DNA of 64,000 nt from an uncultured virus (IMG/VR IMGVR_UViG_3300032093_000098) (IMGVR_UViG_3300032093_000098); one strand, 5' to 3'; shown: positions 42,258-63,964, counted from the stretch's first letter. The notes: a model not told the origin generated them from the sequence alone. Made by a program: numbers and translations.

Positions 42258-42692
42258 GTGAGCAGCAAGATTAAGATAAAGCCGATTTTGTCCGCTTTTT
42301 CGGGTGATCGAGAAATAGAAAATTTTTGCGATCCAAACAGCCACGACAAAACGGGCAGCGGCGTTGCTGTTGACACGTTTAATAAACTCAGGGCTTGGGA
42401 CGAGCTTAGTGATGATGGGGTTTTTACCGAGGTTTTTAACGGGGGCAACGTTGTTGGGTTTATTTACACCGTCCCGGGCAGGCTTGTTAGTTTCGGGGTA
42501 TCCCCAAACCACAGGGTAAAACCGGTTTTAAAAAAGGTGTTTGAAGATATTGTTGAGATGGCGGGAGATGAGTTTTTGTGCGCTATGTGGACGAGAAATT
42601 CAAGAGGAATTCAGTGGTTGCAGCGGTGCGGGATGGAGATTTTAACTTGTGATGACGTTGTCACAGAATTAATTTATAAAAAATGCCAGTAA
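42258..42692 (+). CDS. GNAT-like protein preceding internal virion genes
   Basis: SFGVSPNHR..NSRGIQWLQRCGM; start uncertain (GTG 42258). Confidence 0.5.
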   Translation: MSSKIKIKPILSAFSGDREIENFCDPNSHDKTGSGVAVDTFNKLRAWDELSDDGVFTEVFNGGNVVGFIYTVPGRLVSFGVSPNHRVKPVLKKVFEDIVEMAGDEFLCAMWTRNSRGIQWLQRCGMEILTCDDVVTELIYKKCQ

Positions 42693-43417
42693 CAGCAGCA
42701 ATAGTAGCAGGGACGATCGCAGCGGGCAAGGGGGTTCAGTCTCTTGTTCGTGCGAATCGCGCAAAAAAAGAAATGGAAAGACTCGGAAAGGGCTTGAAAG
42801 ACCCTTCTTTTTCCATGCCAGCCGAGCTGATGCAAGCATACGATGCCGCGAAGGCTATGCCGGTTTCCAGAAATATGCCCGGATACGGAGCTATTCAAAA
42901 CATGGCAAGCATGCAGCAGCAAGGGGCTCTTGGCGATATCTCAAAGTATGGCACCGGGCTTGACGCCGTCGCTGCCATGACGAACCTCGGAACGCAGTCC
43001 ATGGCTCAGCAGCAGGAGATCGGTATTCAAAACAGCCAAAACTATCAGTCTCAACTCGAGAACAGACAGCAAAACATGGCCGGTATCGCAAATCAGCTCG
43101 CCGGCTTTAGGCAATACGAGTATGAGCAAAATGTCTTGAATCCATTCCTTAGAACAAGCGCCGCTATTTCTGCGTTAAGAAGAAAAAGATACCAGGAGTC
43201 AAATCTTGCATTTGACTCTTTTGCCAACGTTTTGCAGGCTGGCGCAGGGGCTATTAACCCAGCTTCGATAACCGACACCGGCGGTGGTATGGCCGGCAAT
43301 ATTGCAGCTGGCGGCGGAACGTCTGGCGGCGGAACGTCTGGCGGCGCCAACACCGGGGCAAGAGGGTGGTCGAGCGCTCAAAATATGGTTGATGAATTTG
43401 GAAACGTTATTTTTTAA
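42683..43417 (+). CDS. Internal virion / DNA ejection protein
   Basis: Ala/Gly-rich N-terminus, Gln-rich helix, no Cys. Confidence 0.6.
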   Translation: MPVTAAIVAGTIAAGKGVQSLVRANRAKKEMERLGKGLKDPSFSMPAELMQAYDAAKAMPVSRNMPGYGAIQNMASMQQQGALGDISKYGTGLDAVAAMTNLGTQSMAQQQEIGIQNSQNYQSQLENRQQNMAGIANQLAGFRQYEYEQNVLNPFLRTSAAISALRRKRYQESNLAFDSFANVLQAGAGAINPASITDTGGGMAGNIAAGGGTSGGGTSGGANTGARGWSSAQNMVDEFGNVIF

Positions 43418-43423
43418 TTTAAA

Positions 43424-44635
43424 ATGGCAGTAAGCGCATCAGTTGTATACACAGGCGAGTCGGGCAATATGTCTGGCGACAACACCGGTGCCGCGTTTTT
43501 TGAGCGCGGAGACGCCCTTGATATCTCACAACAGGAGATAGCCCGATCAAGGGAGCTTGCAAGGGAAAAAAGAGACAGAGAAAAAGAAGTGAGAGAGCAG
43601 TGGCGAAACGCCATAATGCCCACAGAGGATCTATGGCTCGACGAGGAAGAAGAGGAGCTCAACGCTGTGATCAATGAGTACGACAATATGATTTCCGGTT
43701 TCGCTCAACGCGGGGCGGAATTTGCCGACCTTAGCTCGGACGAGATCAAGCAGAAGAAGCAATTGGAGGCAAGAATCAAGCTTTTAAGAACTCAGTCCGA
43801 TCAGAACAAGGCGTATTACGACCAGATCATGTCAGAGTTTCAAAAAGATCCGGACGGCCTTATTTATGATCCTGAAAAATCGACAAAAATGCTCGAGGAG
43901 TTTCGTGGATCAGGCAAAAGCATCGAGGCGAGGAATGAGGTCGCGAGAAAAAATGGCGTCTTGCCTAAAAGATATGACTTCTCTGGGGTGACCACGAACC
44001 TTGCCAAGGTTCTGCCAGATACCGATTTGCCTGGAAATAAAACAGGGAAAAATCCAAAGGCTTTTGAGCTTGTTCTTGATGATTTTCTCGCAAGCCCCGA
44101 GGGAGATCTTATGATCAGAGAGACCAATGAAGCAGAAGGGGATATAAAGAAAAGACTTCTTGATGAGTTCAATGTTATTTACAGACCGAAAAGCAAGCCT
44201 GTCGTTAAGACGTCTACCAAGGCGCCGACCGCTCCAAAAAGTGACTTTTCTCTCACTCCGACCGCAACAGGTACTGGGGTCGGGAAGTATAAAAACCTTG
44301 AGTTCAACGTTATGACCACCCCTAATTCGCCAGGGCAATCTGATTTATTTTGGGATTCAGGGTACAACACTATTAACATTCCGCACAAGGCGCTATCCCT
44401 TTATGACAACTCCGGGAATCCCCAGCAAGTTACGGTTCAGTCGGTATACCAAGGTCCGAACGGCACCGTATTAAGAACGACAGACAGTCATAATGAAGAG
44501 ATATGGATTGATTATTCGAATCCAAGAAATAAATCAACAGTAGACGGCGCTTATCAGGTTGACTTTAATGATGTCTTTGAAAAGGTCAGATCAACAGCTC
44601 CTTCAGACGGCGGATCTGGTGTGCCTTGGCTATAA
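43424..44635 (+). CDS. Internal virion / ejection protein
   Basis: Coiled-coil, no Cys; position. Confidence 0.55.
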   Translation: MAVSASVVYTGESGNMSGDNTGAAFFERGDALDISQQEIARSRELAREKRDREKEVREQWRNAIMPTEDLWLDEEEEELNAVINEYDNMISGFAQRGAEFADLSSDEIKQKKQLEARIKLLRTQSDQNKAYYDQIMSEFQKDPDGLIYDPEKSTKMLEEFRGSGKSIEARNEVARKNGVLPKRYDFSGVTTNLAKVLPDTDLPGNKTGKNPKAFELVLDDFLASPEGDLMIRETNEAEGDIKKRLLDEFNVIYRPKSKPVVKTSTKAPTAPKSDFSLTPTATGTGVGKYKNLEFNVMTTPNSPGQSDLFWDSGYNTINIPHKALSLYDNSGNPQQVTVQSVYQGPNGTVLRTTDSHNEEIWIDYSNPRNKSTVDGAYQVDFNDVFEKVRSTAPSDGGSGVPWL

Positions 44636-44659: not shown

Positions 44660-47600
44660 ATGGCTGTCCCAGCAAATGTAAAATATTACGAGTATCTCAA
44701 GTCAAAAAAGCTCGATGTGCCACCGACGTACGATTCGTTTCAAAAAACCCTCTCGGACAAAGAGAAGGCGATGAAGTACTATTCCTATCTTTCATCCAAA
44801 AAGTCCCAGGGCATGGACGTCGACATCCCTGCTTCTTTTGACTCTTTTTACAACACGTTAAACCCAAAGGGGGCATCATCAGAGGTTGGCGCGGCTTCTG
44901 GAGAAGATTTAAACGCGCCGCAGCAGCCTTCCGCTCCGAGTTTTACGGGGGCGAAAGGAATGAAGCCAAGGGGAATTCAGCCCGCCTTAAAACAAGAAGC
45001 TGAAAAGCCACGGCCAACCAAACCGTATCAAGATATCATGCCAAAGATGGAGGAAGCTCCATCCGAAACAACGCAGGCCGCAGTTCCCGCTCCTATATCG
45101 TTTGCCGAGCAGGAGCAAGAAAAGGCAAACGAAAGCATAAGGAGAGGATATCTACCATCGAATCCAGCGATAGTTAACGACCGTGTAATTAGCGAGGTAG
45201 AGAAGGTCAGAGAAGAGGAGGGGATGGAGCCTATAGAGGACGTTTTGTCGAGAAGGGTTGCCCTCAATCAGATAGACGACGTAATGGAGACTTTCGGTCT
45301 ATCAAGCGAACAGGTTGACGACTATATGGAAAATTCGGCAAGAGACATTGACTCGATGGCTCTTGACCAGATAACCCAGGCGGCGGGCATGGACAGTGAA
45401 TTTCTTGAATACAAGAAATCATTAAAGACGGGAGACGCCATAAGCCCCATCTATCAAGGAAGGATGAGGGAGAGTCAAAAAAAGGTTTTTGACGCAGCTA
45501 TGGGCGACTATTGGAATTTCTTGGCGAGAAGCAATTACGGGGCATACAAGGACAACAAGGACAAGTATGATGCGCTGAAGGCAAAGACTGCCGAGGAGAG
45601 AACGACTGAAGACGAAAGATGGTTAAAGCTCACGGAAGACAGAGCCACGGCTCTCTATTCCGCTGCGGCAAAGAAGGAGGCTATTGGTTTGAAGGATAAT
45701 ATTTCCCAAAAACTAAAATCTGTTGCCGGCGTTGATTACGGAAAGTATCTTTCTGCGACAAAAGACTTCAATGCCAAGGCTTCTGCTCTTGAAAAAGAGC
45801 ACGCCGCCGGGAAGATAAACGACCAACAGTACGAGGAAAAATACAATGCTGCGTACGATGAATTAGAGGCCATCAAGAGAGACTCGGGCGTGAATGATAG
45901 CACAATGGCTACACTCAATGAGATTGACGACCTGACGTCAAAATACGGGCGGACACTCCTGAAAGACGTAGCGGTAAAAACTTCAGGTTTTTCCGAGACT
46001 CGTAGCTACGATAAGTGGCTCGAGGAACTGGAAGAGAAGAAAAGGAATTCGGAAGACTATGAGAGGTTGTGGAAGGAGTCTGGGGCGTTCGGTAAAGCGG
46101 TGCTTGGAGGTTATGAGTTTACCAGGAAATTGGGTGGCAGCGTATTTAATTCCGCTATGGACGTGGCTGGGGGTCTCGTGAGAGTTCTTGATGCTGCGGA
46201 CGCCAAGGGGCTTTACCAAGGTGTTGGCTATGATTTTTCGGATCAGATGTACGACAAAATCATGAACATGAAGGCCGTAACAGAATCCAAAAGGTTTGAT
46301 GCGGACGCCGATTCTGTTCTTTATAATTTGGCCGACATGACCGGAAACGGATTTGGTTCTGTTGTTGCTTTTGGTCTTGGCGGATCTGCGGCACTTGCTT
46401 TAAAGGCGCCGGCAGCCGCTGGCACGTTCGTCACAGGATACCTCATGGCCGAGTCATCTACTTATCAAGAGTTGATGGATAGCGGCGTCGTGTCAAGCCA
46501 GGAGGCCACCTTGATCTCAAATGCCGTAGCGCCAGTGGTAGCCTCCATAGAACTTCTTGTCCCTGACTCAAAAGTTATCCAGGGGTATGTTCGACCGGCC
46601 ATAAGAGCTGCCGTTGTTCAGGGAAAGCCTCTTTTGAAGGCTGTTGACGAATCCTTGCAAACATACGCAAAGTCATTTGGCAAAGAGGCGTTCGAAGAGG
46701 GACTTGGATATGTGGGTGAGGTGTCGGCAAAAAACATTGTTGACGCGGTTGGCGGCTACGATTATTTCAATCAAGAGTTTTCACTGAAGGACTTGGTGAT
46801 CAATTCTCTTGGCGGCGGGCTTACCGGCGGCTTGATGAATTTCTTCAGCTACTCATCAACTCCATCTCCCGTTAAAGAGAGGGCGGTTCTTGAGATGGCT
46901 GAAAACGGGCAGCAGATTATAGATTCACACAAAAACGAAAGAACCATATCGGATCTCAGGACCACGCTGAGCAAGCCGATGGAAGATTTGCGCGGGCTTA
47001 AAGCCCATCCAAATTGGAACAATCTCGACAGAAGCAAGCAAGCCCGGGTTTTTTCCATTAGTCAGCAAATAAGATCCCTCGAAGAGTCATCCGTACAAGA
47101 CCCGATCGTTAAGGCTCAGGTCGGCAGATTGAAGGCTGAGCAGCAAGAAATATTGTCTCTTGGCGCGAACGGAATGGACGCAAAGGCTGTTGGTGTTTCG
47201 ACTGACAAGCAGAGGGTTTTTATTGGTGATCAGCAGGCGTTTTTTTACATAAACGAGGACGGCGATTACGAGATAGAGTACAATGACGGCAGAAGCGTTG
47301 TTGTGTCTAAGGGCGAAGGCGCAGCCGAAAAGGTTCGTGCCATGGGGATAAGGGCCGACGACGGAGAGGTCGCGGCAATGAATAAAGAGAATCAAAACAC
47401 ACTCATTACCCCAAGGCTCGAAAGAGGTGCTACTGTTGACTACAACGGAAAGAACGCAACGGTAAATAGCTACAAAGAAAAAGACGGCAAGGTGGTGTAT
47501 GTAAATTTGACCACCGAAGACGGAAGGACTCTGCAGATCAGGGAAGGTCAGGCAGGGGTGGGACAAGAATTATTAAATAATTTAAATAATCTACCTTATG

Positions 47601-50600
47601 ATCAAAAAGACCAAACAAGGATATCAGGTGAAGTCGGAAAAGGGCAAGAACCTGTCACAACCCAACCTGTCGAAAGCACAAGCGAAGAAGCGCCTGCAAC
47701 AGGTGGAGTTCTTCAAGCACAAGAAGAAATAGACTCTGTAAGACAGCGGATAAATGCAATTGAAGCCGCAAGAAGAGAGGGCAGAATCCTTGAAGATGAA
47801 AAGCCTAATGAATTAAAGGGACTTAAGGCAAGGGAAAAAGAATTATTGTCCCAAGAGACCAAACCGTCTGGACAAAAATTAACCGTTGGAAGCAAAATTC
47901 AATGGGACGTATTCGGCAATGAATCAATGAATGAATGGACTGTTGCTGAAGAAACTACAACTAAAGGCGGACAACCAGCGGTAAGGCTTACTCGGTTTAT
48001 AGAACAGGGCGTTGCCGAAGGCGGCGGAGTTGCGGGGTACACTCAAGAACATATTGTGCCAATCGCTGACTTGCAAGGCAAGCCGGCCGCCGAAGCCGCC
48101 CCCCAAACACAAGGGCAAGAAGAAGTAATAGCTCCACAAGCAACAGAAGAAGCCGCTCCAAAGACCGAAGAAAAACCAACCCGTAAGACTCGACTCGCCA
48201 AATTATTTGAGGTATCCGAAGGAGAGGAGGCCGTGCCAGCAATTGAGCAGGCCCTTTCTGAAACCGGCATAAAGGTAGAAGTTATGGACGATGCCGAATA
48301 CAACGAGGACAATCGCATAAAAGACAGTCAAGGTCGCGGTTCAGAAGGTATGTTTGTGGCTGATGACGGAACGATTATCTTAAACCGAGATAAGATTAAG
48401 GGCGAATGGGGTAAAACTATCGTGTTCCACGAAGGTATTCACCCCGTGGTAAACATCATTCGCAACACTGATCCGAAACGATACAAGGCAATCGTGGAAG
48501 GACTAAAGGCAGAAGCTGCGAGGAACAACGATGTTGCCAGAGTTGCTGCCGACATTGCTGCTTCTGAAGAGTATCAAAGAAGAGGTCCTGAGAGTATTGA
48601 AGACGAGACCGTTGTTGAAACCATGGCTCGCGTGGCTACAGGGGATGTCAATATCGATAAGTTTGAACCTACCTTCCGCGAGAAGTTCATTGAATTCATG
48701 AACGACATAGCTAAGGCACTTGGATTGAGACCTATCCTCACAAATTCTCCACGAGTTGAGGTGAAGCGTTTGGCTGATCAGATCAACAAAATGTTGAATG
48801 AGGGCGGTAAAATTAGCGATGTTGTAGGGAAGAAAAATGTAGGTGAATTTCAGAACAAGATAACTTTAACCGATACAAACTCTGTTTTTTCAAATACAAG
48901 CTCTCAAGCCAGATTTGAAATGAAGTTTTTGGAAGACTCTGAAGACTTTACCAAATTAATAGAAGAAGGGCGCGTAGTTCATAACGCAAGTTTAGATGAC
49001 ATAAACGGAGAAACTGTTGTTATTCATAATCCGGATAACTTTTCAACTGGAGAAATAAAGTTCAGAGGAAAGGATCTTGTGAAGGGCGAAGGTGGTGTTT
49101 ACTTTGTTTTGCTGTACGATGATGTATGGGCCTCTGGTAAAAAATCAAGTGCTTCGCAATTAGCTTCTTTGATAAATGAGTCATTACAAAAATCAACTGA
49201 TGGTAAAGGTCGATTAGTTCTGGTAAAAGGAGACGCAAGCAAGAATTTAACAAGTGTAAAGGGAGCCAAGGCTCTTATGGGTGTTATGGAGATATTGGCG
49301 GATGATGGATTGATTCCGCTAAGTGCTTTTAGAAAAGCATTGAACATTGCCGGAAAGAAGTACGGTATCAATTTCGACGGAAGAAACGATGCTAAATCTA
49401 TCCACAAGGATATTCAGGATAAATTTATGAATGTATCCAATTCATCTTTCGAAAGAAGAGGTGATTTCGTTCGTGATGTAATTGATGCCATAGCCAATCA
49501 AAATGTATTGTCCAAGGAGGCTATAGCGGAAATCGCTGAATCTATTGGAGCTAAAAGGAAAATGACCACGTTCTCTAAGGCGAGCATCCTTGATTCTGTT
49601 GCGTATGCGACCAGCGAAAGGATGCTCAGAGATATTCCTAATTCTCATGTATACGCTGTAATAGAAACGTCTTCAAAAGTAAAGCCTGAATTTGTAGGCA
49701 AGCATGAGTCTTACCCATGGCATATAGTTACTGAGGACGGAAGCAAACCTATTCTTTATATACTTAAGGACAGACCATTCTATAACGATGCATTTGTAGC
49801 CGCTAAAAGCACTGAGAAAGTAAAAGAAGGGGAAAGATTTGGTGACGTAAGCCGTGCTGGATTGGCTCAAAGAGGCATGGGGCTTGCTAAAGTGGAAACG
49901 AAACCGACTGGCCAACCGTCCAAGGGCATCAAACGCGGCAGAAACTTAGTCAAGGACACCTACTACGAAGCCGGCCTGACCGAAGACAAGAATGACTATG
50001 TATTCTTCCATGTATCGTCAGCTCCCAAGGCTTCGATTATGAAGGGTATTGATAGTACCAAGTATACCTCGCTTAGAACGGCAAGAGAAGAGAAGGGCCT
50101 ACAATATGGTGTTGCCTCTTATTACACTCGTCCGGAAGATGGAGAAAGAATGGTGGGTGGTGAAAAGTATGCGGTTCGCGTACCTAAGGGCAAGGTTTAT
50201 CCTATCGATTCCGATCCAATGGGATACGGAGAAAAGGCTGAGGAAAATGTACCACAAGGTACACCATTCCGTGGAGAGGCCGTGAAGCGTGAGATCGCAG
50301 ACATGGCTAAGAAGGATGGATACCAAATGATTGTTGGCGAGTGGTCTTACAGCCGCACTGGAAAGCCAGCAGGAGAGATTCCTGAGTTCCGCGCAGACGC
50401 ACTTGTGCCACTCAAGCCTACTGCCGAGAAGCCAACGTCGTTCACATCAAACGCCGAGAAGGGCATGGAGAGAATTCCGTTCCCAAGTCAGCAGAGCGAA
50501 CAGGCTAAGCAGGAACTTGAGAACATCGCCTCTGAGGTGCGTGATATTATGTCGAGCAAGAAGAAGTTCTCAAGCAAGGAATACCAGCTTGCCGACAGCG

Positions 50601-52441
50601 TTTACATGAGCGGTCAGGTTACGGAAAATAAGTACGAAGACAACGAATTCAAGCGCGACATCACTCCAGAAGAGTACGACATGATGACCAAAGTTCTTCC
50701 TAAGAATATGCAGGAAGACGCAGCCCGTGTGCGTGGACTGTTGTTCGGTGGTAAGAAAAAAGGACAGGCTTCTAAGGGTATTCCAAGAACATCTAAAGAG
50801 TTCGCAGGGAATGTGGGAGAGACGATCGACCGCATCAAGGCTGCAACATCGGAGGACGGGGCAACGCTCAACCTCGATGGTACAACTTACGAAGACGGAG
50901 GTCTTGTGGTTCCTGCCGGTTCATTGAACGTGGCCCAGGATGAGGTTACTGCCGAGGGCTTGTTTGACTTCTTGAAGGACAACGAGGAGAATATTTCCAG
51001 CGACATATTCAAGATTGGACTTTACAAGTTCCCAGACCGTCCAGAGGTTTCTTATGACTTGAACATCGTGATTCCAAGGGAGTACCGTGATGTGGCCTTG
51101 AAGTTTGGTGAGTTATCTGGACAGGAATCACTGTTTGACCTTGACACATTCGAGAACATCAAGACCGGATCGGACGGTAAGAATCCACGCAAATTCACGG
51201 CCCAAGAGCTTGCTGAGATTGCTAAGGATTTGTCTGAGGGCAGACTTCCAAAGATTGTTGGAGGCAAGGGACAGCCATCAATGATGAAGCGTACTCCAGC
51301 CTTGGCATCCGTAGAGAGTACGGCTAAGGCGTTGGGAGGGATGAAGGATGACGCTGAAAATATATTTAGTAAATACAAAATACAAGGGTATGGTAGTAGA
51401 TTTACATATCCAAACAAGATAAATATAAGCAGAATATCTGATTTAGAGTATCTAAAAGAATGGGTAAAGGGCGTTAACCCTAATTTGGATATTGATTTTG
51501 AAAAAAATGACCCCGAATATAGGAGTATCGCAGACAAGCAGATTGATTGGAATATAAAAGAGCTTTCAAGCATACTTAGTAATGCAAAAAATAAGGGTTA
51601 TATTATTGGCAAGAGGGTAATAAATACGGATGGTACTCCAATAGATATAAAAAACATAGGTCATTCTTTTTCGGTAGATGATTCTAATTTGCCGTCTTTT
51701 GGTAATTCCGATAAGTTAAAAACAAAAACAACTGTAAAAATACCATTTGAGGCTATAAATTTAGAGGCTACCACTGATAGGTTTGCGTATTATGGTAACT
51801 CGGAGTATGAGATTGTTGTTAAGCCTAATGAAAAACTTGAACTATTAAAGTACGAAGAAGTGGACAGAAGTAATAGATATGCTTCTAAGCCAATAACAGA
51901 AAAAGAAATCTCAAGTGGTTTCTATAGAATAGAAAAACAAGTCTCCGAAGCCTACCACAAAGCCAAAGCAGACGGCAGCAATCCTGAACTTGTAAAAGCA
52001 GTAGAAGATTTAATCGGCAAGCCAAAACAAGGACAGCCATCAAGACTAAAGCGCACCCCAGCCCAAATCAGACAAGCTGTAGAAGATGGGGTAGATGCAG
52101 TTGAAGCAGCGATCGCTGAGAGCATGGATCCACAGCAGGCCGTTGACGAGAACATCTCAAACCAGGAATGGTACGGTGATTTGAGTGCTGCCCAGAAGGA
52201 ACAGTTGAATGAAATCCTTCAAGATGAGTTCGGCGCATCAGTTAGGGAGAAAAATGCCGTCAACGACAAGGCCAGGGCGGTGTCTGATTTGTGGGCGGAA
52301 GGAAGCCGCGAATCTAAGAAGAGAATAACTGATATTTTGGAAGATGAGCCTGAGCTTTCGTACATTTACGCCAATTATCCAAAAATACTAAAACAGCTTG
52401 AGTCGGCTGGGTTGATAACAAAAACAGACGGATGTCCATGA
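44660..52441 (+). CDS. Giant internal virion (polyvalent) protein
   Basis: 2593 aa; Gly/Ala hydrophobic segments, HEGIH zincin motif (48428-48442), GQ[PA]S-delimited modules. Confidence 0.75.
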   Translation: MAVPANVKYYEYLKSKKLDVPPTYDSFQKTLSDKEKAMKYYSYLSSKKSQGMDVDIPASFDSFYNTLNPKGASSEVGAASGEDLNAPQQPSAPSFTGAKGMKPRGIQPALKQEAEKPRPTKPYQDIMPKMEEAPSETTQAAVPAPISFAEQEQEKANESIRRGYLPSNPAIVNDRVISEVEKVREEEGMEPIEDVLSRRVALNQIDDVMETFGLSSEQVDDYMENSARDIDSMALDQITQAAGMDSEFLEYKKSLKTGDAISPIYQGRMRESQKKVFDAAMGDYWNFLARSNYGAYKDNKDKYDALKAKTAEERTTEDERWLKLTEDRATALYSAAAKKEAIGLKDNISQKLKSVAGVDYGKYLSATKDFNAKASALEKEHAAGKINDQQYEEKYNAAYDELEAIKRDSGVNDSTMATLNEIDDLTSKYGRTLLKDVAVKTSGFSETRSYDKWLEELEEKKRNSEDYERLWKESGAFGKAVLGGYEFTRKLGGSVFNSAMDVAGGLVRVLDAADAKGLYQGVGYDFSDQMYDKIMNMKAVTESKRFDADADSVLYNLADMTGNGFGSVVAFGLGGSAALALKAPAAAGTFVTGYLMAESSTYQELMDSGVVSSQEATLISNAVAPVVASIELLVPDSKVIQGYVRPAIRAAVVQGKPLLKAVDESLQTYAKSFGKEAFEEGLGYVGEVSAKNIVDAVGGYDYFNQEFSLKDLVINSLGGGLTGGLMNFFSYSSTPSPVKERAVLEMAENGQQIIDSHKNERTISDLRTTLSKPMEDLRGLKAHPNWNNLDRSKQARVFSISQQIRSLEESSVQDPIVKAQVGRLKAEQQEILSLGANGMDAKAVGVSTDKQRVFIGDQQAFFYINEDGDYEIEYNDGRSVVVSKGEGAAEKVRAMGIRADDGEVAAMNKENQNTLITPRLERGATVDYNGKNATVNSYKEKDGKVVYVNLTTEDGRTLQIREGQAGVGQELLNNLNNLPYDQKDQTRISGEVGKGQEPVTTQPVESTSEEAPATGGVLQAQEEIDSVRQRINAIEAARREGRILEDEKPNELKGLKAREKELLSQETKPSGQKLTVGSKIQWDVFGNESMNEWTVAEETTTKGGQPAVRLTRFIEQGVAEGGGVAGYTQEHIVPIADLQGKPAAEAAPQTQGQEEVIAPQATEEAAPKTEEKPTRKTRLAKLFEVSEGEEAVPAIEQALSETGIKVEVMDDAEYNEDNRIKDSQGRGSEGMFVADDGTIILNRDKIKGEWGKTIVFHEGIHPVVNIIRNTDPKRYKAIVEGLKAEAARNNDVARVAADIAASEEYQRRGPESIEDETVVETMARVATGDVNIDKFEPTFREKFIEFMNDIAKALGLRPILTNSPRVEVKRLADQINKMLNEGGKISDVVGKKNVGEFQNKITLTDTNSVFSNTSSQARFEMKFLEDSEDFTKLIEEGRVVHNASLDDINGETVVIHNPDNFSTGEIKFRGKDLVKGEGGVYFVLLYDDVWASGKKSSASQLASLINESLQKSTDGKGRLVLVKGDASKNLTSVKGAKALMGVMEILADDGLIPLSAFRKALNIAGKKYGINFDGRNDAKSIHKDIQDKFMNVSNSSFERRGDFVRDVIDAIANQNVLSKEAIAEIAESIGAKRKMTTFSKASILDSVAYATSERMLRDIPNSHVYAVIETSSKVKPEFVGKHESYPWHIVTEDGSKPILYILKDRPFYNDAFVAAKSTEKVKEGERFGDVSRAGLAQRGMGLAKVETKPTGQPSKGIKRGRNLVKDTYYEAGLTEDKNDYVFFHVSSAPKASIMKGIDSTKYTSLRTAREEKGLQYGVASYYTRPEDGERMVGGEKYAVRVPKGKVYPIDSDPMGYGEKAEENVPQGTPFRGEAVKREIADMAKKDGYQMIVGEWSYSRTGKPAGEIPEFRADALVPLKPTAEKPTSFTSNAEKGMERIPFPSQQSEQAKQELENIASEVRDIMSSKKKFSSKEYQLADSVYMSGQVTENKYEDNEFKRDITPEEYDMMTKVLPKNMQEDAARVRGLLFGGKKKGQASKGIPRTSKEFAGNVGETIDRIKAATSEDGATLNLDGTTYEDGGLVVPAGSLNVAQDEVTAEGLFDFLKDNEENISSDIFKIGLYKFPDRPEVSYDLNIVIPREYRDVALKFGELSGQESLFDLDTFENIKTGSDGKNPRKFTAQELAEIAKDLSEGRLPKIVGGKGQPSMMKRTPALASVESTAKALGGMKDDAENIFSKYKIQGYGSRFTYPNKINISRISDLEYLKEWVKGVNPNLDIDFEKNDPEYRSIADKQIDWNIKELSSILSNAKNKGYIIGKRVINTDGTPIDIKNIGHSFSVDDSNLPSFGNSDKLKTKTTVKIPFEAINLEATTDRFAYYGNSEYEIVVKPNEKLELLKYEEVDRSNRYASKPITEKEISSGFYRIEKQVSEAYHKAKADGSNPELVKAVEDLIGKPKQGQPSRLKRTPAQIRQAVEDGVDAVEAAIAESMDPQQAVDENISNQEWYGDLSAAQKEQLNEILQDEFGASVREKNAVNDKARAVSDLWAEGSRESKKRITDILEDEPELSYIYANYPKILKQLESAGLITKTDGCP
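47598..47732 (+). CDS. Overprinted 44-aa basic protein in the +1 frame of the giant ORF
   Basis: MIKKTKQGYQVKSEKGKNLSQPNLSKAQAKKRLQQVEFFKHKKK; AT-rich leader AATTATTAAATAATTTAAATAATCTACCTT. Confidence 0.6.
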   Translation: MIKKTKQGYQVKSEKGKNLSQPNLSKAQAKKRLQQVEFFKHKKK

Positions 52442-52938
52442 TTAAAAAACTTGACAAAAAGGTTGTAGATCTTCTTCTCCCTCGGATGAAAGATGAATAC
52501 AGCGCATTTTACTTTTATCGCGCCGCCAGCAATTGGTGCCAAGGGGTTGGCTTTTTTCAAGCCGCCAAGTTTTTTGCCGCTGAGTCGCAGGACGAGCTTG
52601 AGCATGCAAAGAAAATTGAAAAATACATCACCGATTGGAACGTAATCCCGGAACTGCCGACTGTAAATCGCCCGCAGATTGAGTTTTCGGGCATCATGGA
52701 GGTGTTGGAAGAGGCTTACAAGCTTGAATACGACCTGTACGAGGCTTACGAAGAAACGTCTAAGAAGCTTTTTGAGATTGATCTGTGCGCGTTTGATTTT
52801 CTCCAACCGTTGCGATTGATCCAGAACGATTCCGTATCCGAGTATAGCGACAAGCTGAACCTGCTCGAAGGAGTAGACGTTGCCGATAAGTTCAAAGTTT
52901 TATTGTTGGAAGAAAAGTTGTTTTCCGTAAATGGCTAA
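52438..52938 (+). CDS. Non-haem ferritin (FtnA-like)
   Basis: E..A...Y...NW..G..AAKFF..ES.DE.EHA.K..Y; LE; FDFL..Q; ATGA overlap with the upstream stop. Confidence 0.85.
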   Translation: MIKKLDKKVVDLLLPRMKDEYSAFYFYRAASNWCQGVGFFQAAKFFAAESQDELEHAKKIEKYITDWNVIPELPTVNRPQIEFSGIMEVLEEAYKLEYDLYEAYEETSKKLFEIDLCAFDFLQPLRLIQNDSVSEYSDKLNLLEGVDVADKFKVLLLEEKLFSVNG

Positions 52939-55900
52939 TCCTTGCAAAATAACATACACACCCAAGGGAGGGAATCCGCGAGAATATGACTATGCCGAAT
53001 TCATGACCGCCCTTAAGGACGGTCTTTTTGCTGAATTAACAAGGTCAGGCGCGATAAACCCAAATGCAATGAAGGGCGAAAACCCATTTGTTGCCACCAA
53101 ACAAAAGCCAAGCCCAAAACAAACGGCTCAGGATCGAGCCGTGCAGAGCATGCATGAGTTCATGAAGGACGGGATAAGTGCGGCCTACGGGGATGTCAAA
53201 GGAGGCGCTTACGCGTCAAGAGCAAGGGAGCAGCGCGGGATGAAGGATAAGGATTACGTCTCTTATAATCAGGACTCGTTAAACCTTCTTGGTCAGCAAA
53301 AGTTTCAAGAGCTTCTTGACAGATATAATTCGGGAGAAAAGGACGTGTTCGATACGGTTCTCGAGGCCATGGACAACATGACCGATAGAGAGAGAAAGAA
53401 TTCTCCGGTGCTGAGTCCGCTTTATAGTGTGGTGCTGACTAAAGCTGCCCACCATTTCTTTATGACTGGCAACATGGCTGCGGCTAATAAGATATACAGC
53501 GAACTATCGGCATCCCTTTCAGCAAAGGGTCAGGACATATCAACCGCCAGCGCACTATCTGCGCCCGAGCAATTGGCAAATAGATTGATGTTTGAGGATA
53601 CAGGCCGCCAATCATTTTTGAATCGGGTAATATCCGGGGAAATGACCATTGGAGAAGCCATATCGGAAATAATTGCCATTGCAAGACTTGACCGAGATCA
53701 GGTAACCAGCATCGTTGCAAGGGTGGTCCCGAAGGTTGGTAAAAAAATCGTCGTCCCAACAAAAAGCAAGCAGTCCGATAAAAGAAGGGCAGAGGTTCAG
53801 GCGATTAAGGACATTCTTGATAAAATGAAGTCCGGACAGCCTTCCGCAATGAGAAGAGGAGGGCAACCATCCCCTTCTCGTCAAAACAGGATCCCCGCAG
53901 AGATAATTCCTCACATTGAGGAGCTCGCGAGGTCTTATGCGGAAGACGGTGCTGTATCGGTTAATCAAATAAAGTCAAGAGTGTGGGCGAACCTGAAGGG
54001 GCTGATACCTGGGTACAAGACAGATGTTGATGAGCTTATCGACCAGGCTGCCCAATCGCTTGAGTCAACCATAAAGTCAAACAAGAAGGCTTCCTCCGAG
54101 GCTCGACTCATTAGTGCGCTCGAGGGGGTCATTGACGATATGGATGCTTCTCGAAAAAAGGCGGTAAAAATACTTTCGGACATGATTCTGGAGAATGATC
54201 CGGGATATGTTGCCGCCAGAAGCAGGGGCGAAAAGGTAAAGGCAAGAGAAAGGCTTCAAAAAATTCTTGCCAACAAAACAGAGGCTGTTGGCATTTTATC
54301 ATCCGCAAGAGCGATAGCAGAGGCTCAGATCATGGGTAATGAAAATATCGATCCCGCAACAAAACAGGCTATCATAAACGGGATTGATGACATGGTTTCC
54401 GATATTCTTGATATGCCCGTTGGCAAATCTGAACTCAGAGCCGCGAGCTCGGCTCTTTCCGACGAATCTGTTAAGGACGCCATAATCGATATCGCCATAA
54501 AGCATTACGGAGACCCGCAGCCGGGTATAGAAAATCTTGCCGCCCAACTCGTGTCAGACCTTGGTGTGGATCCCGCTTATGCAAATGAATTGCAGCAGCT
54601 TCTTCAATCAGAGATTGCTGACGCGGTTTCCAAGAAAATGGACAAGGAGGCCGCGAGGATTGATCGGATTGTCGGCAACGTTCTCGCGGGGAAAGAAGTG
54701 AGAAAAGCGGTTGTTAACGCCATTACTAAAGGGGAGCTCACCGACACCATGCTTGGAGATGCCTTGATGAACGCCCTTGATTATAGGGGTTTTTCAGCAA
54801 AGGATATTGAAACTCTCAGAAACTATTTCACAAGACTTCAGCAACTAACCCCTGGAGAAGAGCTTTATCAGCAGATAAATCGATATATTAACGACGTTCT
54901 TTCCGATTACGACGAAACCACTGCGGCAATGATCGGCAGGTGGCTTACGGAGCAGATGTATATTTCCGCCCTCTCAAGCGTTATGAATACAGCCGTGATG
55001 GCATCTGGTGTTGGAGCCGTTGTGTCAACTATCCAACACGGGATTTTTACAGCCATAATGAATCCATCGAGAATGGCAAGAGCACTAAAGCATGCGCGGA
55101 GTATGAGGAAGGCTAAGGCAACAATGGGATGGGAGACTGTTGCTGCAAAATGGAGCAAGCCAGAGTCTCAATTTGGCGAAACCACCCTACTGGAGAGACC
55201 GGAAGAAAAGTCTCACGGGGCGGTTGTCAGGGTTACCCAGAAGACGTTTGCTCAAATATTCGAAGACATCGCAAAGGCCAAGGGGAATAGAAAAGGGTAT
55301 TTTATCGCTCAGGCAGTATTGAAGGCGATCAATCATTCTGTTACCATGTCGGGTGCAAGAAAAAGAAAGTGGATGCCGTCTTTTTCTCAAATATCTATGA
55401 CTATGATGTCCGCCCAGGATATTTTAATGGGGGGCTTCTTGCAAGACATGTACTCCTACATCGAGGCTGATCGTTATGTCCATAATTTGAATCGCTTATC
55501 AGGAGTTCCTATGAAGAAGGGCACGGAGGCGTGGAGCCAGTATAAGAAGGCTAAATTGGACGAGATCCTGTCTGCCGGTTCGGGCGCTATTGAAAAAATG
55601 CAACTTGAGGTGGAAGAAGAAGCTATGGATTTAATTCGAAAGGGAGAGGAATTACCGAAGGGGTGGAGAAGGCGTCGTCTCAGGGACAAGATTCATAAAG
55701 CCATGCCAGCGGAGGTTGTAAACGAGATGGCTCATCAGGCTAAAAAAGCGCTTTTGCTTCAGAAACCGGAGACATCTCTCGGGGCATGGATTTTTGACGG
55801 GGTCTCTCGGGCGCAGGGCATCAAGGACTCGGACAACGCAGGAAGAGTGTTTGGCAAGACTATACTGAACATGACCCTTGGCTTCATGCGTCTAAACATC

Positions 55901-57160
55901 ATAACCGCCGAGTACGCATGGAAGTCTGTGCCGGTAATCCCTGCTGCGGCTAAAATTGCCAAAGGAACCAATATCCGGTATGTGGACGGCAAACAGACAG
56001 AGGTGCCGATGACCACGGAAGACAAGGTAAACGTGATTTTGAAAAACGCTGCGGCAACAATGGTGTGGGCGGGGCTGATGGCGTCCATGTTTGATTACGA
56101 TGAAGAAGAGGAGAAAATTGTTCTTGACCCAGACTCCCCAATCAAGTTCTATGGATCAGCAGAAGATTCTAAACAGCGTGCCGAAATAGAGGCTGAAGGT
56201 GGCAAGGAGAATTCTATTAACGTTTTTGGAGTCAACATACCATTGCTTACACTTGGTTTTGCAATCGGTTCCGTTGGGAAGGTTCTTGGCGAAGTCTCTA
56301 ACGACATCAGGTTCTCCAAAGACGGATCGTCTGAATTGACCTTCGACAAAATGCTCGCGCTTGTTGTAGGCCAGATGACAGGCAGTGAGATGTCTGCTCC
56401 AAAAAGAGCCCTGGATAAGGTTTACCGAGGGTATGGTGAGCCAAAGGCCGGCGAAGCTCTCGAAATTTTGATGCTCGACGGAATCGAGACAGCGCTGTCT
56501 CCGTCTCAGATCGAGCAAATCAAAAATGACTACGAAGCGTGGAAAGGGTATCAAAAAGAAAAGAGGTCAGGAGTTGTTGACAATATTGTGGAAGACATAT
56601 ACTTCCTTGATGCCTTCATGGATACCAAGGGTGGCAAAATGTACGACCATTTTGGGCAGCCGGTGTATGTGACACCGAAGACCGACATTGTTACGTTTTT
56701 AATGCCCGAAAAAGTGTGGAAGGACGGGACAAGTCACGTTGAAAATAGTCCGTACTACAATCTCACAGAGCAAAAGTGGTTTCCAAAAAATTATTCGTCA
56801 TGGAACGCTAAGGCATGGAATGAAGTTCGTATCTTTGGCAAGACATACGAGGTGCCTATCGAGGATGAATTCAAGCAGTCGATCGGACTTGTGATTGACA
56901 AGGAGACATCTGCGGTTATCGATAGTCACCTTGATGTTATCAAGGGCTTGAATACCGACGACAGAAAGGTCGAAATGCTTAAGGACTACAGGCAACGTGC
57001 AGTGGACACTGTTCGAAGCGAGTTTGAGAGATTGACCGCCCGCGAAATATCCAAGTCTGTATCTCCAGGCATGCCCGAAGATCAGATCAGGGTCGCCGTA
57101 AGCAATGCCCGAGAAAAAGTGATTCTTGAAATGAGGACAAAATACAAAATAGATCAATGA
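52931..57160 (+). CDS. Large internal virion / ejection protein
   Basis: 1409 aa, helical, hydrophobic segments, YDHFGQPV near the C-terminus. Confidence 0.65.
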   Translation: MANPCKITYTPKGGNPREYDYAEFMTALKDGLFAELTRSGAINPNAMKGENPFVATKQKPSPKQTAQDRAVQSMHEFMKDGISAAYGDVKGGAYASRAREQRGMKDKDYVSYNQDSLNLLGQQKFQELLDRYNSGEKDVFDTVLEAMDNMTDRERKNSPVLSPLYSVVLTKAAHHFFMTGNMAAANKIYSELSASLSAKGQDISTASALSAPEQLANRLMFEDTGRQSFLNRVISGEMTIGEAISEIIAIARLDRDQVTSIVARVVPKVGKKIVVPTKSKQSDKRRAEVQAIKDILDKMKSGQPSAMRRGGQPSPSRQNRIPAEIIPHIEELARSYAEDGAVSVNQIKSRVWANLKGLIPGYKTDVDELIDQAAQSLESTIKSNKKASSEARLISALEGVIDDMDASRKKAVKILSDMILENDPGYVAARSRGEKVKARERLQKILANKTEAVGILSSARAIAEAQIMGNENIDPATKQAIINGIDDMVSDILDMPVGKSELRAASSALSDESVKDAIIDIAIKHYGDPQPGIENLAAQLVSDLGVDPAYANELQQLLQSEIADAVSKKMDKEAARIDRIVGNVLAGKEVRKAVVNAITKGELTDTMLGDALMNALDYRGFSAKDIETLRNYFTRLQQLTPGEELYQQINRYINDVLSDYDETTAAMIGRWLTEQMYISALSSVMNTAVMASGVGAVVSTIQHGIFTAIMNPSRMARALKHARSMRKAKATMGWETVAAKWSKPESQFGETTLLERPEEKSHGAVVRVTQKTFAQIFEDIAKAKGNRKGYFIAQAVLKAINHSVTMSGARKRKWMPSFSQISMTMMSAQDILMGGFLQDMYSYIEADRYVHNLNRLSGVPMKKGTEAWSQYKKAKLDEILSAGSGAIEKMQLEVEEEAMDLIRKGEELPKGWRRRRLRDKIHKAMPAEVVNEMAHQAKKALLLQKPETSLGAWIFDGVSRAQGIKDSDNAGRVFGKTILNMTLGFMRLNIITAEYAWKSVPVIPAAAKIAKGTNIRYVDGKQTEVPMTTEDKVNVILKNAAATMVWAGLMASMFDYDEEEEKIVLDPDSPIKFYGSAEDSKQRAEIEAEGGKENSINVFGVNIPLLTLGFAIGSVGKVLGEVSNDIRFSKDGSSELTFDKMLALVVGQMTGSEMSAPKRALDKVYRGYGEPKAGEALEILMLDGIETALSPSQIEQIKNDYEAWKGYQKEKRSGVVDNIVEDIYFLDAFMDTKGGKMYDHFGQPVYVTPKTDIVTFLMPEKVWKDGTSHVENSPYYNLTEQKWFPKNYSSWNAKAWNEVRIFGKTYEVPIEDEFKQSIGLVIDKETSAVIDSHLDVIKGLNTDDRKVEMLKDYRQRAVDTVRSEFERLTAREISKSVSPGMPEDQIRVAVSNAREKVILEMRTKYKIDQ

Positions 57161-57526: not shown

Positions 57527-58180
57527 ATGATAAAAATTAACATTGCCAACCCTGAGTTCCCTGAGTTGTCCGAATACAACCGAATCATGGGGTATCTCAA
57601 GGGGCAGTACCCTGAGCTATCCGTGTCTGTGGTTCGATCTGGCGACAATTATGCTATGAGCAAGGTGTCTGTATCGAGAGTTCGAGAGACTCATGTTCTT
57701 GCGGAGGGGTTCGCTATATATCCGCACTCACCAAACGCGGCTATCGGGCAATTAAAAGCCGATATTATCGCGATCACTCGATGCATGAAAGAGCTCGGTA
57801 TTGAGTTTGAGTACATAGACTTTCACGTTTCTCGCCCCGAGCAAGTGCACGTTACGCGCTCAAAAATGAACTCTTGCGTATCTGTAAGACAGCTTGTCTC
57901 TGTTTTAGAGGATGCCAATCACGAAAAACTACCAGAGGTATTAGCGTTTGTTGAGTCAAAGAGAGCCAAAGGTGGCCGCCCGAGTAAGAAGTCTATTATC
58001 GACATGGTTTTCTCTTCTCAAGAGGTAGACAAGAGGTCTTCGCCGTTGAGAACTGGAATTGAATGGGCAAACGTAAAGAGGTTGTGGGCAGATAAATTTC
58101 AGTCTTCAAAGTTTGTCAAACAATACAAAAGTCTTGATGAATTTTGTACATTTGCAACCGAAGAAGAGGTTAGCCAATGA
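57527..58180 (+). CDS. Hypothetical protein
   Basis: ORF preceded by a TAATTTTG box. Confidence 0.6.
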
Positions 58181-61879: not shown

Positions 61880-63964
61880 ATGAAAATTAACTCAGTAAAA
61901 TTTAAGGATAAAAATTCCTTTAATAAAAACAAGTCTAAAAGGAATGTTATTGAATTCCATGAGCCTTTTGGTATAATTGTATTTGCAGACGAGCAGCCAG
62001 TTGAGCCAGATGTGCAAAAGGTTTCATGTGTCACCGAAGTTACTTCTGATCTTGAGGAAATACCGTCAGGACTTGCTGTAGTAAGGGCTAATGATTACGC
62101 CAAGGCTATTGAATTAGTAAAATCTTTAGGATATAATATAGTTGAAGAGTTTAAAGCACTGTCTCAATTTGTAGTAGACATGCCTGAGTTTACTGAATTT
62201 AAAGATTTCAAAAATACTCTTATTTCTGACTCTATATCAGAAGTAATAGAGGACATGATTGTAAAAGTAGTAGAACAAGGTGATACTACCCCGTATTCTG
62301 GTCACTGGCACTTTGCTAATTTAAAGGCTCAGCAGGCTTGGGATCAATTGCCCGCCGGTGTTGTAAAAGATATCGCTGTTCTTGATATTGCCTGCGATGT
62401 TAATCATGAAGACCTTATTGGAAGAACTAATTTAAACTGGAATTGTGTTACTGACACTCCTGACGTAGCCCCGGTTTCGGTAAACGAAAAACATGGAACT
62501 TGCTGTGCTGGAATTATAGCTGCAGCCACTAATAATAATGTTGGCGTAGCTTCACTTGGTAATAATCAACTTAGAGTACAATTTTTACATATAGGGTATA
62601 ATTCAACTTCTTCTGGCTCATTTAGTACATCAGATAGTATTTTAACAAGAGCTGTAAATAAAGCAATGGCAAATCCTGATTGTGTAGGAATTTCTATGTC
62701 TTTTGGTGGTGGTGGATACCGCACCGCTTTTGCTCAAGCTTTACTATTAGCCTCTACAACAGGGAGAGAAGGTAAGGGTATTCCTTGTATGGCTTCTTCA
62801 GGAAATAGTAATTCAAATGAATTTACTCAATATCCTGCTTGCTATCCAGGGGTAATGGCAATTGGGGCATCCACTTCAGCAAACACAAGAGCTTCTTTTA
62901 GTAATTACGGAACAAAACTCTTTGCTTCTGCCCCAGGAACCTCTGTAATAACAACAGACAGAACTGGAGCTGATGGATATCACCCAACTAATTATCATTA
63001 TTTTTCTGGAACATCAGCAGCTTGCCCTGTTTTTGCTGCTGTTGTTGGGGCTTGTTTGATTAAAAACCCAAACTTGACAGATTCTCAATTGAAGGTAGTT
63101 CTTGCAAATTCATGTAGAAAAATTGGCGGATATGTTTATGATACAAATGGAAAATCCTTAGAGTTAGGATACGGTATTATAGATATGGATCTTGCTGTTA
63201 GAAACGCTGGCCAAGCAGTGGTTACACCTCCGCCACCCCCACCTCCAGCACCTATTAATGTAGATATTACTTCATCAATAACAGCAAATAGTATTGCTAC
63301 AATAGGAACACCATTGAGTGTATTTTTGTCGATTAGCATGAATCAGGAACCTGGATTTGCATTAACAAATATTCCTTTTAGGTTTTTTGTTAACCAAGGA
63401 ACAAGTTCTGAATTTAGTTCCGCGTCTTATGCCATTACCAGTGCTTTTCTTCAGCTTGGAAATGGGTTGTATTCTGCAAATACAACGATTAACTTTATTA
63501 TCCCTACAAATTTTACTACTGGTCAATACACCTTGGTTTGTCAAGTAGATCATACTAATGTTGTTAACGAAACCAATGAAAGCAACAATACATTTTCAAG
63601 AGCTATTACTTTGGTGTCCCCAATACCAGAACCCCCTGTTGGTACTGTTGATTTAGGGATTGTGCTAAAAGACTTCTCTTGGTCAAGTGGTAGATTAAGA
63701 ATCGGCTATGACTTAAAAAACAATGGTTCAGCCACAATTAACTCTTTCACATTGGTTAGAGGATTTGAAGGCAATACTCAATTGACATCGAACAGTAATC
63801 AGACCCTTAGACCCGGGCAGTCTGTTTACATTAACACTAATTGGCCGACAACCCTCACCCCTCAATTACCTGCGGTTTTTAGAGCTACATTAACTAAGGT
63901 TAACGGGCAAAATGCGGATAGTAATGCAGCTAACAATGTGTCAACATTATTAATTACTACATGA
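61880..63964 (+). CDS. S8 subtilisin-like serine peptidase with CARDB-like domains
   Basis: IAVLD, HGTCCAG, SSGN, GTSAACP; Pro linker; VDHTNVVNETNESNN and DSNAANN motifs. Confidence 0.9.
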   Translation: MKINSVKFKDKNSFNKNKSKRNVIEFHEPFGIIVFADEQPVEPDVQKVSCVTEVTSDLEEIPSGLAVVRANDYAKAIELVKSLGYNIVEEFKALSQFVVDMPEFTEFKDFKNTLISDSISEVIEDMIVKVVEQGDTTPYSGHWHFANLKAQQAWDQLPAGVVKDIAVLDIACDVNHEDLIGRTNLNWNCVTDTPDVAPVSVNEKHGTCCAGIIAAATNNNVGVASLGNNQLRVQFLHIGYNSTSSGSFSTSDSILTRAVNKAMANPDCVGISMSFGGGGYRTAFAQALLLASTTGREGKGIPCMASSGNSNSNEFTQYPACYPGVMAIGASTSANTRASFSNYGTKLFASAPGTSVITTDRTGADGYHPTNYHYFSGTSAACPVFAAVVGACLIKNPNLTDSQLKVVLANSCRKIGGYVYDTNGKSLELGYGIIDMDLAVRNAGQAVVTPPPPPPPAPINVDITSSITANSIATIGTPLSVFLSISMNQEPGFALTNIPFRFFVNQGTSSEFSSASYAITSAFLQLGNGLYSANTTINFIIPTNFTTGQYTLVCQVDHTNVVNETNESNNTFSRAITLVSPIPEPPVGTVDLGIVLKDFSWSSGRLRIGYDLKNNGSATINSFTLVRGFEGNTQLTSNSNQTLRPGQSVYINTNWPTTLTPQLPAVFRATLTKVNGQNADSNAANNVSTLLITT

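Follow-up and report, generated by a model that had tools for sequence, protein, structure and literature searches.

Lone terminal cysteines in two giant proteins of an uncultured podophage, separated by a ferritin-like gene: a candidate head-to-tail disulfide staple

The ejection-protein block and its two cysteines

The subject of this study is a block of genes for ejection proteins in the uncultured virus IMGVR_UViG_3300032093_000098 of IMG/VR, of which one stretch of 64,000 nucleotides, hereafter the window, was analysed. The block contains two giant proteins, of 2593 residues (giant 1) and 1409 residues (giant 2), each of which possesses a single cysteine close to the end that faces the other giant, and the two genes are separated by a ferritin-like gene. 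The segments that surround the two cysteines will be called handles: the C-terminal handle consists of the final ~55 residues of giant 1, and the N-terminal handle of the opening ~58 of giant 2. The features of the block are the following, the gene starts being those of the open reading frame (ORF) calls made in this analysis.

42683..43417, + strand: small protein of 244 residues, Ala/Gly/Gln-rich, with a hydrophobic N-terminus; 0 Cys
43424..44635, + strand: protein of 403 residues, same block; 0 Cys
44660..52441, + strand: giant 1, 2593 residues, mosaic protein of the 'polyvalent' type; sole Cys at 2592 (..KTDGCP, then stop)
52274..52438, + strand: C-terminal handle of giant 1 (residues 2539-2593; ..DPELSYIYANYPKILKQLESAGLITKTDGCP)
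52433..52435, + strand: TGT codon of Cys2592; a Pro codon and the stop codon come next
52438-52938, + strand: ferritin-like gene between the two giants (166 residues, ATGA-overlap start), or from 52432 (168 residues)
52931..57160, + strand: giant 2, 1409 residues; its sole Cys is residue 5 (MANPCK), and the part beyond the handle is all-alpha
52931..53104, + strand: N-terminal handle of giant 2 (residues 1-58), with a beta-hairpin (7-9/17-19) and a helix (21-39)
52943..52945, + strand: codon of Cys5 (TGC)

A reading of the window made from the sequence alone had counted, by manual scan, one Cys at position 2592 of giant 1, one at position 5 of giant 2 and none in the 244- and 403-residue proteins, and the recount by computation gave the same result. 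Together, the four proteins comprise 4,649 residues with 2 Cys for 47-61 expected (Poisson P about 8e-24), the background being 196 Cys in 15,016 residues (1.3%) over the 68 other ORFs picked in the window and 76 Cys per 7,525 residues (1.0%) in the other ORFs of the structural module. The resulting frequency of 0.04%, against 1.0-1.3% in the window, goes together with 0.023% in 120 homologues of giant 1. The core of this protein (residues 1200-1930) has 170 database relatives of 1,426-4,538 residues, and the best 120 of these 170 contain 73 Cys in 318,785 residues, of which 52 are situated among the final 3 residues, 11 among the first 10, and 10 internally. In this same set of 120, Pro directly follows the Cys in 45 of the 52 C-terminal cases, and 52 proteins have no Cys at all. 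The counterparts of the 244- and 403-residue proteins, the first of which has no Pfam or PHROG family match, are Cys-free in every locus listed. All four proteins of the block are kept free of cysteine, as is known for phage proteins injected through the periplasm.

Two observations concern the neighbourhood of this block. The protein encoded 3' of giant 2 (57527-58180 in the window; 215-259 residues in L002-L075) has a Cys adjoining its C-terminus in most relatives, and the copy in the window is without it. In one related locus, two very Cys-rich proteins with an MCGCK..CGC start lie downstream of the giants (L035:14498-15883), in contrast with the Cys-free block beside them.

The sequence-only reading had also described the two cysteines as lying at facing ends. 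The terminal cysteines are real, but the ends do not abut: the ferritin-like ORF between them, which overlaps both giants by a few bases, had been overlooked. Its product matches Pfam Ferritin (PF00210) over nearly its full length with 70.8 bits for a cut-off of 24.5 (E 1.4e-19), and aligns with the E. coli-type non-heme ferritins 4xgs and 1eum at E about 1e-12. In the alignment to 4xgs, Glu, Tyr, Glu-x-x-His, Glu and Gln positions are kept, the alignment of the last Glu being ambiguous; these are the positions that form the di-iron site of E. coli FtnA. The protein contains two Cys. The first is common to E. coli FtnA and is a trait of the family, and the second, at about position 119, is found in the forms that belong to this cassette and not in ferritins of unrelated contexts. 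The product therefore resembles the bacterial ferritins (E. coli FtnA 1eum, 4xgs) in its Pfam family, its alignment to FtnA and its di-iron site positions, and differs from them by its location in a phage ejection block and by the extra Cys near residue 119. The presence of a full-length bacterial-type ferritin gene within a block of ejection proteins, translationally coupled to both giants, is an observation in its own right: no ferritin relatives were found among 50,697 cultured phage records, and, among the papers listed by a literature search, none deals in its title or the beginning of its abstract with a ferritin located in the ejection block of a phage.

The overlap of the reading frames does not account for the position of the cysteines. 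A start codon overlapping the end of giant 1 might have forced the penultimate Cys, and this explanation was rejected since 5 of 9 close relatives keep the Cys although their ferritin starts 6 nucleotides past the giant-1 stop; the Cys codon of giant 2 lies outside the ferritin overlap.

Conservation of the handles and their link to gene architecture

A search with giant 1 yielded nine IMG/VR loci. In these loci giant 1 contains exactly one Cys, in penultimate position, in the 8 of 8 cases where the end is present, and giant 2 contains exactly one Cys, at position 5, in 7 complete proteins and one partial protein. This constancy is maintained in proteins that diverge widely: pairwise identity descends to 31% for giant 1, among 9 relatives and with 233 of 3,726 alignment columns invariant, and to 17% for giant 2, among 8 relatives and with 55 of 1,522 columns invariant. 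When distant relatives are compared by BLASTP, the match is confined to ~60 residues at the end of giant 1 and to ~40-75 at the start of giant 2. Judged from these sequence comparisons, the handles are the conserved parts of otherwise mosaic giants.

A hidden Markov model (HMM) of the C-terminal handle matched 44 of the 120 giant-1 homologues, always at the very C-terminus; a 45th match, in the apparently truncated protein P0059, is partial and stops 6 residues short of its end. When 36 C-terminal handles are aligned, no column is invariant except N79, L87 and C99. The profile of the N-terminal handle, searched against 1.84 billion representatives, yielded 133 clusters at 50% identity, in 132 of which the match begins at residue 1-4 and a Cys is found within the first 8 residues, the sole exception being a 96-residue fragment with the motif at residue 37. 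No second Cys is present in 110 of the 133 clusters, and among the proteins of at least 700 residues the terminal Cys occurs in 98 of 98 and is the only one in 85. When the sequences are aligned on the Cys, their consensus is (M-A-x-P)-C-I-I-T-Y-K-G-K-x-Y-S-Y-E-E-F; the residue before the Cys is Pro in 96 of the 133 clusters and Ala (MAC) in 23. Four proteins with the N-terminal handle also end in Cys. The conservation of the terminal pair in relatives, which the sequence-only reading had singled out for verification, is thus borne out by 132 of 133 N-handle clusters and by 36 of 36 C-terminal handles. The Cys is encoded by TGC in 26 and by TGT in 23 of 49 distinct C-terminal ends, and by TGC in 19 and by TGT in 34 of 53 distinct N-terminal starts; both codons being in use at both sites, selection acts on the residue.

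The relation between the handles and the organisation of the genes was followed in loci fetched in three ways, by the ferritin, by a Cys-free relative and by the N-terminal handle. After removal of duplicates, 59 ferritin-anchored loci were available. The C-terminal and the N-terminal Cys are both present in 38 of the 38 loci with both neighbours complete; one further locus, L039, has the C-terminal Cys and an extra gene inserted before its MAC.. giant. In the loci that possess a single giant, neither terminal Cys is found (4 of 4). The rest of the 59 are truncated by contig ends or placed in unrelated contexts. On the ferritin tree, this single-giant state requires at least 2 changes, L038 and L064 being sister to the two-giant L035 and L036 with support 94/92. 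The single giants of L085 (2,912 residues, no ferritin), of the cultured elemo phages (3,694 residues) and of Cellulophaga phage phi38:1 (gp101, 1,691 residues) all contain 0 Cys and no handle. The single giant of L064 (L064:3590-9967; 2,125 residues) has two internal Cys, at 1496 and 2039, and none at its ends, a count that is again even. Neither handle HMM has a match inside the single giants, so that no fused form was found and an explanation by a Rosetta-stone fusion, which calls for a single giant with an internal C- or N-terminal handle, was rejected.

A third arrangement is encountered in three-part variants, in which giant 1 is split. The N-part has its one Cys in a ..K-C-P-P-G.. motif, 73-315 residues before its end, the middle protein begins with MAKGC and ends with ..CP, and after this protein come the ferritin and a giant with MAK(N)PC at its start. 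Per genome, the number of Cys-Pro sites and that of N-terminal Cys correspond as 0:0, 1:1 or 2:2. Most of these loci, L037 being an exception, also encode a small protein of 233-501 residues, with G-C-H-E-C at 41-44, between the N-part and the MAKGC.. protein.

L018:5407-6108, L021:3747-5174, L056:5595-6935 and others: small G-C-H-E-C protein with ~60 conserved N-terminal residues

Its identification as a thioredoxin-like enzyme was not retained: it belongs to no Pfam family, and in the Atlas comparison no match reached 0.9 and none of the leads concerned redox functions. For the extension that follows the internal Cys-Pro, an interpretation as M23-like was dropped as well, the L037 protein having no Pfam match.

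The ferritin is a constant member of the cassette. It is found between the Cys-tipped ends in all the loci fetched by giant 1 and in the junction of 12 of the 12 loci fetched by the N-terminal handle alone, 9 of which are new contigs; every two-giant locus examined holds a ferritin gene in the junction. The ferritins of the cassette form a clade of their own (support 99/96), apart from those in unrelated contexts. The gene also follows single giants devoid of terminal Cys, in L038, L064 and L065-67. The handles come and go with the two-giant architecture, and this is the strongest comparative argument that we can offer.

Genomic setting and nature of the giants

ORF calls and family matches place a phage structural module on the + strand, where it fills the right half of the window, and a replication module on the - strand, which occupies the left half.

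25733-28195, + strand: large terminase
28262-30658, + strand: portal

Head and tail proteins, one of them a virion protein of 1469 residues, are encoded 3' of the portal; the tail genes are succeeded by a series of ORFs of 147, 244, 403, 2593, 168 and 1409 residues, and 3' of the last of these come a 217-residue ORF, a tail-fibre-like protein and a subtilase-like protein. The gene order of Cellulophaga phage phi38:1 is the same. The terminase matches 87 phage records, of which 86 are Flavobacterium, Cellulophaga, Tenacibaculum or Maribacter phages and 1 is an uncultured Caudoviricetes, with an identity of at most about 27% among the matches listed. The window corresponds to the structural half of a podophage with hosts of the Flavobacteriia type. 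Two further genes may be mentioned: at the tail-fibre end of the module, 61880-63964 encodes a protein of 694 residues with a subtilase S8 and a CARDB domain, and on the - strand 2626-3627 encodes a protein of 333 residues which matches PHROG 1706, labelled 'CRISPR/Cas system associated', at E 1.6e-09.

Neither giant has a sequence match in Pfam, PHROG or the PDB. In the precomputed Pfam annotation, homologues of giant 1 carry PF18760 (ART-PolyVal), PF18838 (LPD23), PF18857, PF11697, PF23802 (DUF7178), PF04002 and PF02195; PF11697 is presumably DUF3293, a name that appears in a note of the elemo record, and RadC and ParB are presumably the names of further families of this list. The Atlas comparison of giant 1 points to polyvalent proteins with a score of 0.88, which is a lead only. 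One domain of giant 1 could be delimited.

48227..48730, + strand: zincin-like domain of the metallopeptidase type, residues 1190-1357 of giant 1; HEGIH motif at 1257-1261 (nucleotides 48428-48442)

H68, E69 and H72 of the giant-1 core are nearly invariant across 37 sequences. In the AlphaFold model of this core (residues 1190-1930; predicted local distance difference test score, pLDDT, 71.9; predicted template modelling score, pTM, 0.52), model residues 1-168 are aligned by VIA-align with lethal-factor-like and Pro-Pro-endopeptidase zincins at a middling and not decisive Z of 6.5-7.0 (root-mean-square deviation 3.8-4.7 over 132-158 residues), and model residues 237-558 with YTH/ASCH-like barrels at Z 5-6.5, also middling. 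This second domain of the conserved core, encoded at 48935-49900 (giant 1 ~1426-1747), thus shows a weak likeness to the YTH/ASCH/McrB-N-type barrels that read modified bases. The model of residues 1-600 of giant 2 (pLDDT 70.3) consists of a beta-hairpin and a helix followed by an all-alpha part. Foldseek returned no match at E <= 0.001 for either the giant-1 core model or the giant-2 model.

The giants are probably carried in the virion and injected with the DNA, as judged from their place among the tail genes and from the annotation of the giant-1 homologues of Flavobacterium elemo phages and of phi38:1 as structural proteins. Two known groups of proteins come near to them. According to the accessible text of Iyer et al. 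2017 (PMC5512222), polyvalent proteins are predicted to be injected and include a zincin-like HExxH domain, also in giants of the N4 type. Giant 1 and giant 2 share with them the size, the mosaic multi-domain organisation, the position among virion genes and, in giant 1, the HExxH domain, and differ in that they remain below the threshold for every Pfam family, the typical families being carried by homologues of giant 1. The text of that article makes no mention of cysteine, disulfide or thiol, and the terminal handles are therefore not part of the polyvalent family as described.

The second group is that of the N4-like phages, for which the available text of PMC11445570 reports near-zero Cys in the injected proteins (Schitoviridae gp71/gp72/gp73, N4 gp50) and ascribes this suppression to their passage through the periplasm with its disulfide-forming enzymes. 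Here too, giant proteins carried by the virion (about 3,400 residues in Schitoviridae) are accompanied by small partners and are nearly devoid of Cys. The Schitoviridae giants differ in carrying an RNA polymerase and in being reported without any Cys, hence without a terminal pair. An RNA polymerase in giant 1 was looked for and not found by Pfam, PHROG or PDB sequence; in the Foldseek search, which covered the folded residues 1190-1930, N4 gp50 came at E about 1 and probability 0.07.

A proposed disulfide staple and its alternatives

A structural precedent is provided by the cyanopodophage A4, which is Anabaena phage A-4L. In the available text of the cryo-electron microscopy study of this phage (PNAS 2025, PMC12002296), the C-terminal helix of gp27 is docked in gp26 with a Cys1715-Cys5 disulfide, five copies of each protein being present; the bond is presented there for one phage, and no rule across phages is stated. 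The sequence record, which we checked, gives 1717 residues and a sole Cys at 1715 (..DNPCQF) for gp27, 1114 residues and a sole Cys at 5 (MSKHC) for gp26, and 0 Cys for gp29. As for the two giants of the window, these are large, otherwise Cys-free products of consecutive ejection-block genes (with the ferritin interposed here), and the geometry is shared, leading from the third residue from the C-terminus in A4 to a Cys5 that is the same in both. The motifs differ (..DNPCQF / MSKHC there, ..GCP / MANPC here), as does the host, which is cyanobacterial for A4, and the gp27 and gp26 genes are 5 nucleotides apart without a ferritin, whereas a ferritin gene is interposed here. The only Cys of A-4L (L098) gp28 form a C-x-x-C at 1036 and 1039, which echoes the C-x-x-C protein of the three-part loci. 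Our literature search did not find terminal-Cys links between ejection proteins outside the A4 paper, and in the accessible part of the published crAss001 atlas disulfides are located only in the tail and the portal vertex.

The reading that we favour, and to which we attach moderate confidence, combines these elements: the two handles are cognate docking modules which are stapled by a disulfide in the virion and couple the giants head to tail. The last ~55 residues of giant 1 would bind the first ~58 of giant 2, and the single Cys of the penultimate ..C-P and that of M-A-x-P-C would form an interchain disulfide in the virion, so that the giants would be stapled head to tail in the internal core (pre-ejectosome), as are gp27 and gp26 of A4. 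The staple would fix a 1:1 co-packaging and/or the order of exit, and would be opened by reduction in the host cytoplasm. With cysteines at the extreme ends, stubs of only 1 and 3-4 residues would remain and the linked pair would be a nearly linear chain; such short stubs, and the Pro on the outer side of each Cys, would fit the passage through a narrow channel. A flanking Pro may in addition protect the stubs from exopeptidases. According to the logic of the periplasm, a lone free thiol would be a liability, and it can therefore be argued that each Cys is paired. We infer all of these steps, from the binding of the handles and the disulfide nature of their link to the co-packaging or exit order and the release in the cytoplasm. 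The tether proposed in the sequence-only reading survives in that the C-terminal end of giant 1 would pair specifically with the N-terminal end of giant 2, a pairing supported by the conservation of the handles alone, by their gain and loss together with the two-giant state and by the A4 disulfide of the same geometry.

A prediction of the complex of the two termini, also suggested in that reading, agrees weakly with such a pairing. The 100-residue ends of both giants, each with its own alignment, were co-folded and gave an ipSAE of 0.51 in three runs when the best of 3 controls gave 0.00. The runs agreed in at least 68% of their contacts, with a partner pLDDT of at least 60. Of 157 solved complexes 116 reach the mark used, as do 2 of 215 mismatched pairs; only 18 of these 157 reach it with a score of 0.60 or less, which is also where both mismatches fall.

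Several points weigh against the staple. The predicted complex of the two handles is a weak pass and nothing stronger. The short contig L058 encodes an upstream protein whose last 151 residues are Cys-free, although its downstream protein has a Cys9, and 6 of the 120 giant-1 homologues have a single internal Cys with a partner not known. The internal Cys-Pro of the three-part variants, situated 73-315 residues from the C-terminus, implies that the rule 'end to end' is not strict, and the C-terminal-handle HMM has no match at this site, the dipeptide alone being in common. The sample is biased, most loci having been fetched via the ferritin or the handle, and the only searches that presuppose neither of them gave 9 loci and 1 locus. 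The group is known here from genes alone, no cultured phage with the cassette being present among the 50,697 phage records. Disulfides are not readily formed in the cytoplasm, and the bond must therefore arise after release or with help. The disulfide model leaves the always-present ferritin gene of the junction unexplained. Finally, neither the handles nor the bodies of the giants have a detectable homology to A4 gp27 and gp26: the HMM comparison gave E > 0.3, hhalign a probability of 0.2-0.3%, and Foldseek with the all-alpha giant-2 model no A4 chain among the 50 matches listed. The A4 precedent is therefore an analogy.

Each Cys might have a partner of its own, through homodimers of giant 1 and of giant 2, or through a bond with the ferritin or with some other virion protein that has a Cys. 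The copy number of the giants is probably above one, to judge from the five copies each of gp26 and gp27 described in the available text on A4 (PMC12002296), the ferritins of the cassette have a second Cys at about position 119, unlike those in unrelated contexts, and the co-inheritance of the handles could simply reflect their neighbourhood in one cassette. The numbers of Cys-Pro sites and N-terminal Cys, which match in each genome, are against such separate linkages, and so, weakly, is the heterotypic co-fold with its score far from the controls. The ferritin in particular is an unlikely partner: the first Cys is common to E. coli FtnA and a trait of the family, and ferritins with only one Cys are found between Cys-tipped giants, with both ends seen in L070/L071, the giant-1 end and the giant-2 start in L069 and the giant-2 start only in L074. 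We consider separate partners to be unlikely.

The thiolates, possibly of two copies of each handle, might alternatively bind a metal ion, an iron-sulfur cluster or a haem, for which the neighbouring ferritin would supply or buffer the iron; a metal-bridged tether had been put forward beside the disulfide in the sequence-only reading. The ferritin-like gene occupies the junction of every two-giant locus seen, with most residues of the di-iron site kept, and of the 52 C-terminal Cys 45 have a Pro after them, Cys-Pro being known from other proteins as the haem-regulatory motif. Neither handle, however, contains any other conserved metal ligand, the invariant columns being N, L and C in one and M, A, (P, C, L) in the other, the single-giant loci L038, L064 and L065-67 keep the ferritin without the terminal Cys, and the Cys pair of A4 is, in the available text, a plain disulfide in a phage without ferritin (PMC12002296). 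A bridge of this kind seems to us quite unlikely.

The weakest alternative, very unlikely in our opinion, is that there is no link at all, each terminal Cys having a different function, such as that of a thiol for reaction or catalysis, of a sensor of redox state once the protein has entered, or of a signal for processing, with a position that is incidental; sequence proves no bond, and the zincin-like domain of giant 1 might process the termini, as is proposed for such domains in the accessible text of PMC5512222, but the A4 disulfide has the same geometry (PMC12002296, available text). Moreover, both Cys are present or absent together with the two-giant architecture, and each is surrounded by a conserved handle. 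Nor do the handles fit a split intein. In such an element a Cys starts an N-intein of ~100 residues and the C-intein ends in Asn, which is followed by Cys; here the donor Cys is penultimate and not ~100 residues from the C-terminus, and the acceptor Cys has only M-A-N-P (or M-A) in front of it, so that Pro or Ala and not Asn directly precedes it. A joining of the giants by read-through, hop or splice was likewise rejected: the two share a frame in the window and not in L004, and a stop follows ..CP in all loci.

To return to the disulfide staple, an extension of it would give a role to the ferritin. The succession handle-ferritin-handle may be a self-contained system for making a clasp, with the ferritin as local oxidant or iron donor, an idea that we offer as improbable. 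A di-iron ferritin-like protein translated between both ends on the same mRNA would close a Cys-Cys or Cys-metal-Cys clasp before packaging, while still in the reducing cytoplasm. In that case the handles would constitute a portable 'plug', which would allow the hypervariable polyvalent bodies to be swapped by recombination while their place in the chain is kept, and the Cys-x-x-Cys protein at the other junction of the three-part loci would fit a redox helper at each junction.

The manner in which podophages store, order and release the proteins that are injected ahead of their DNA is largely unknown. Our observations reveal that an A4-like design recurs, with unrelated sequences, among uncultured phages of fresh and marine waters with Bacteroidota-type hosts; it is a strict rule throughout this large and diverse group, in which one handle alone is represented by more than 130 clusters at 50% identity. 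They also draw attention to the partnership of this cassette with a phage ferritin, which is unexplained. An isolated detail of A4 thereby becomes a testable principle, according to which lone terminal cysteines mark the injected proteins that are coupled and the order in which they stand, and the terminal-Cys signature could serve to find injected effector ('polyvalent') proteins in metagenomes.

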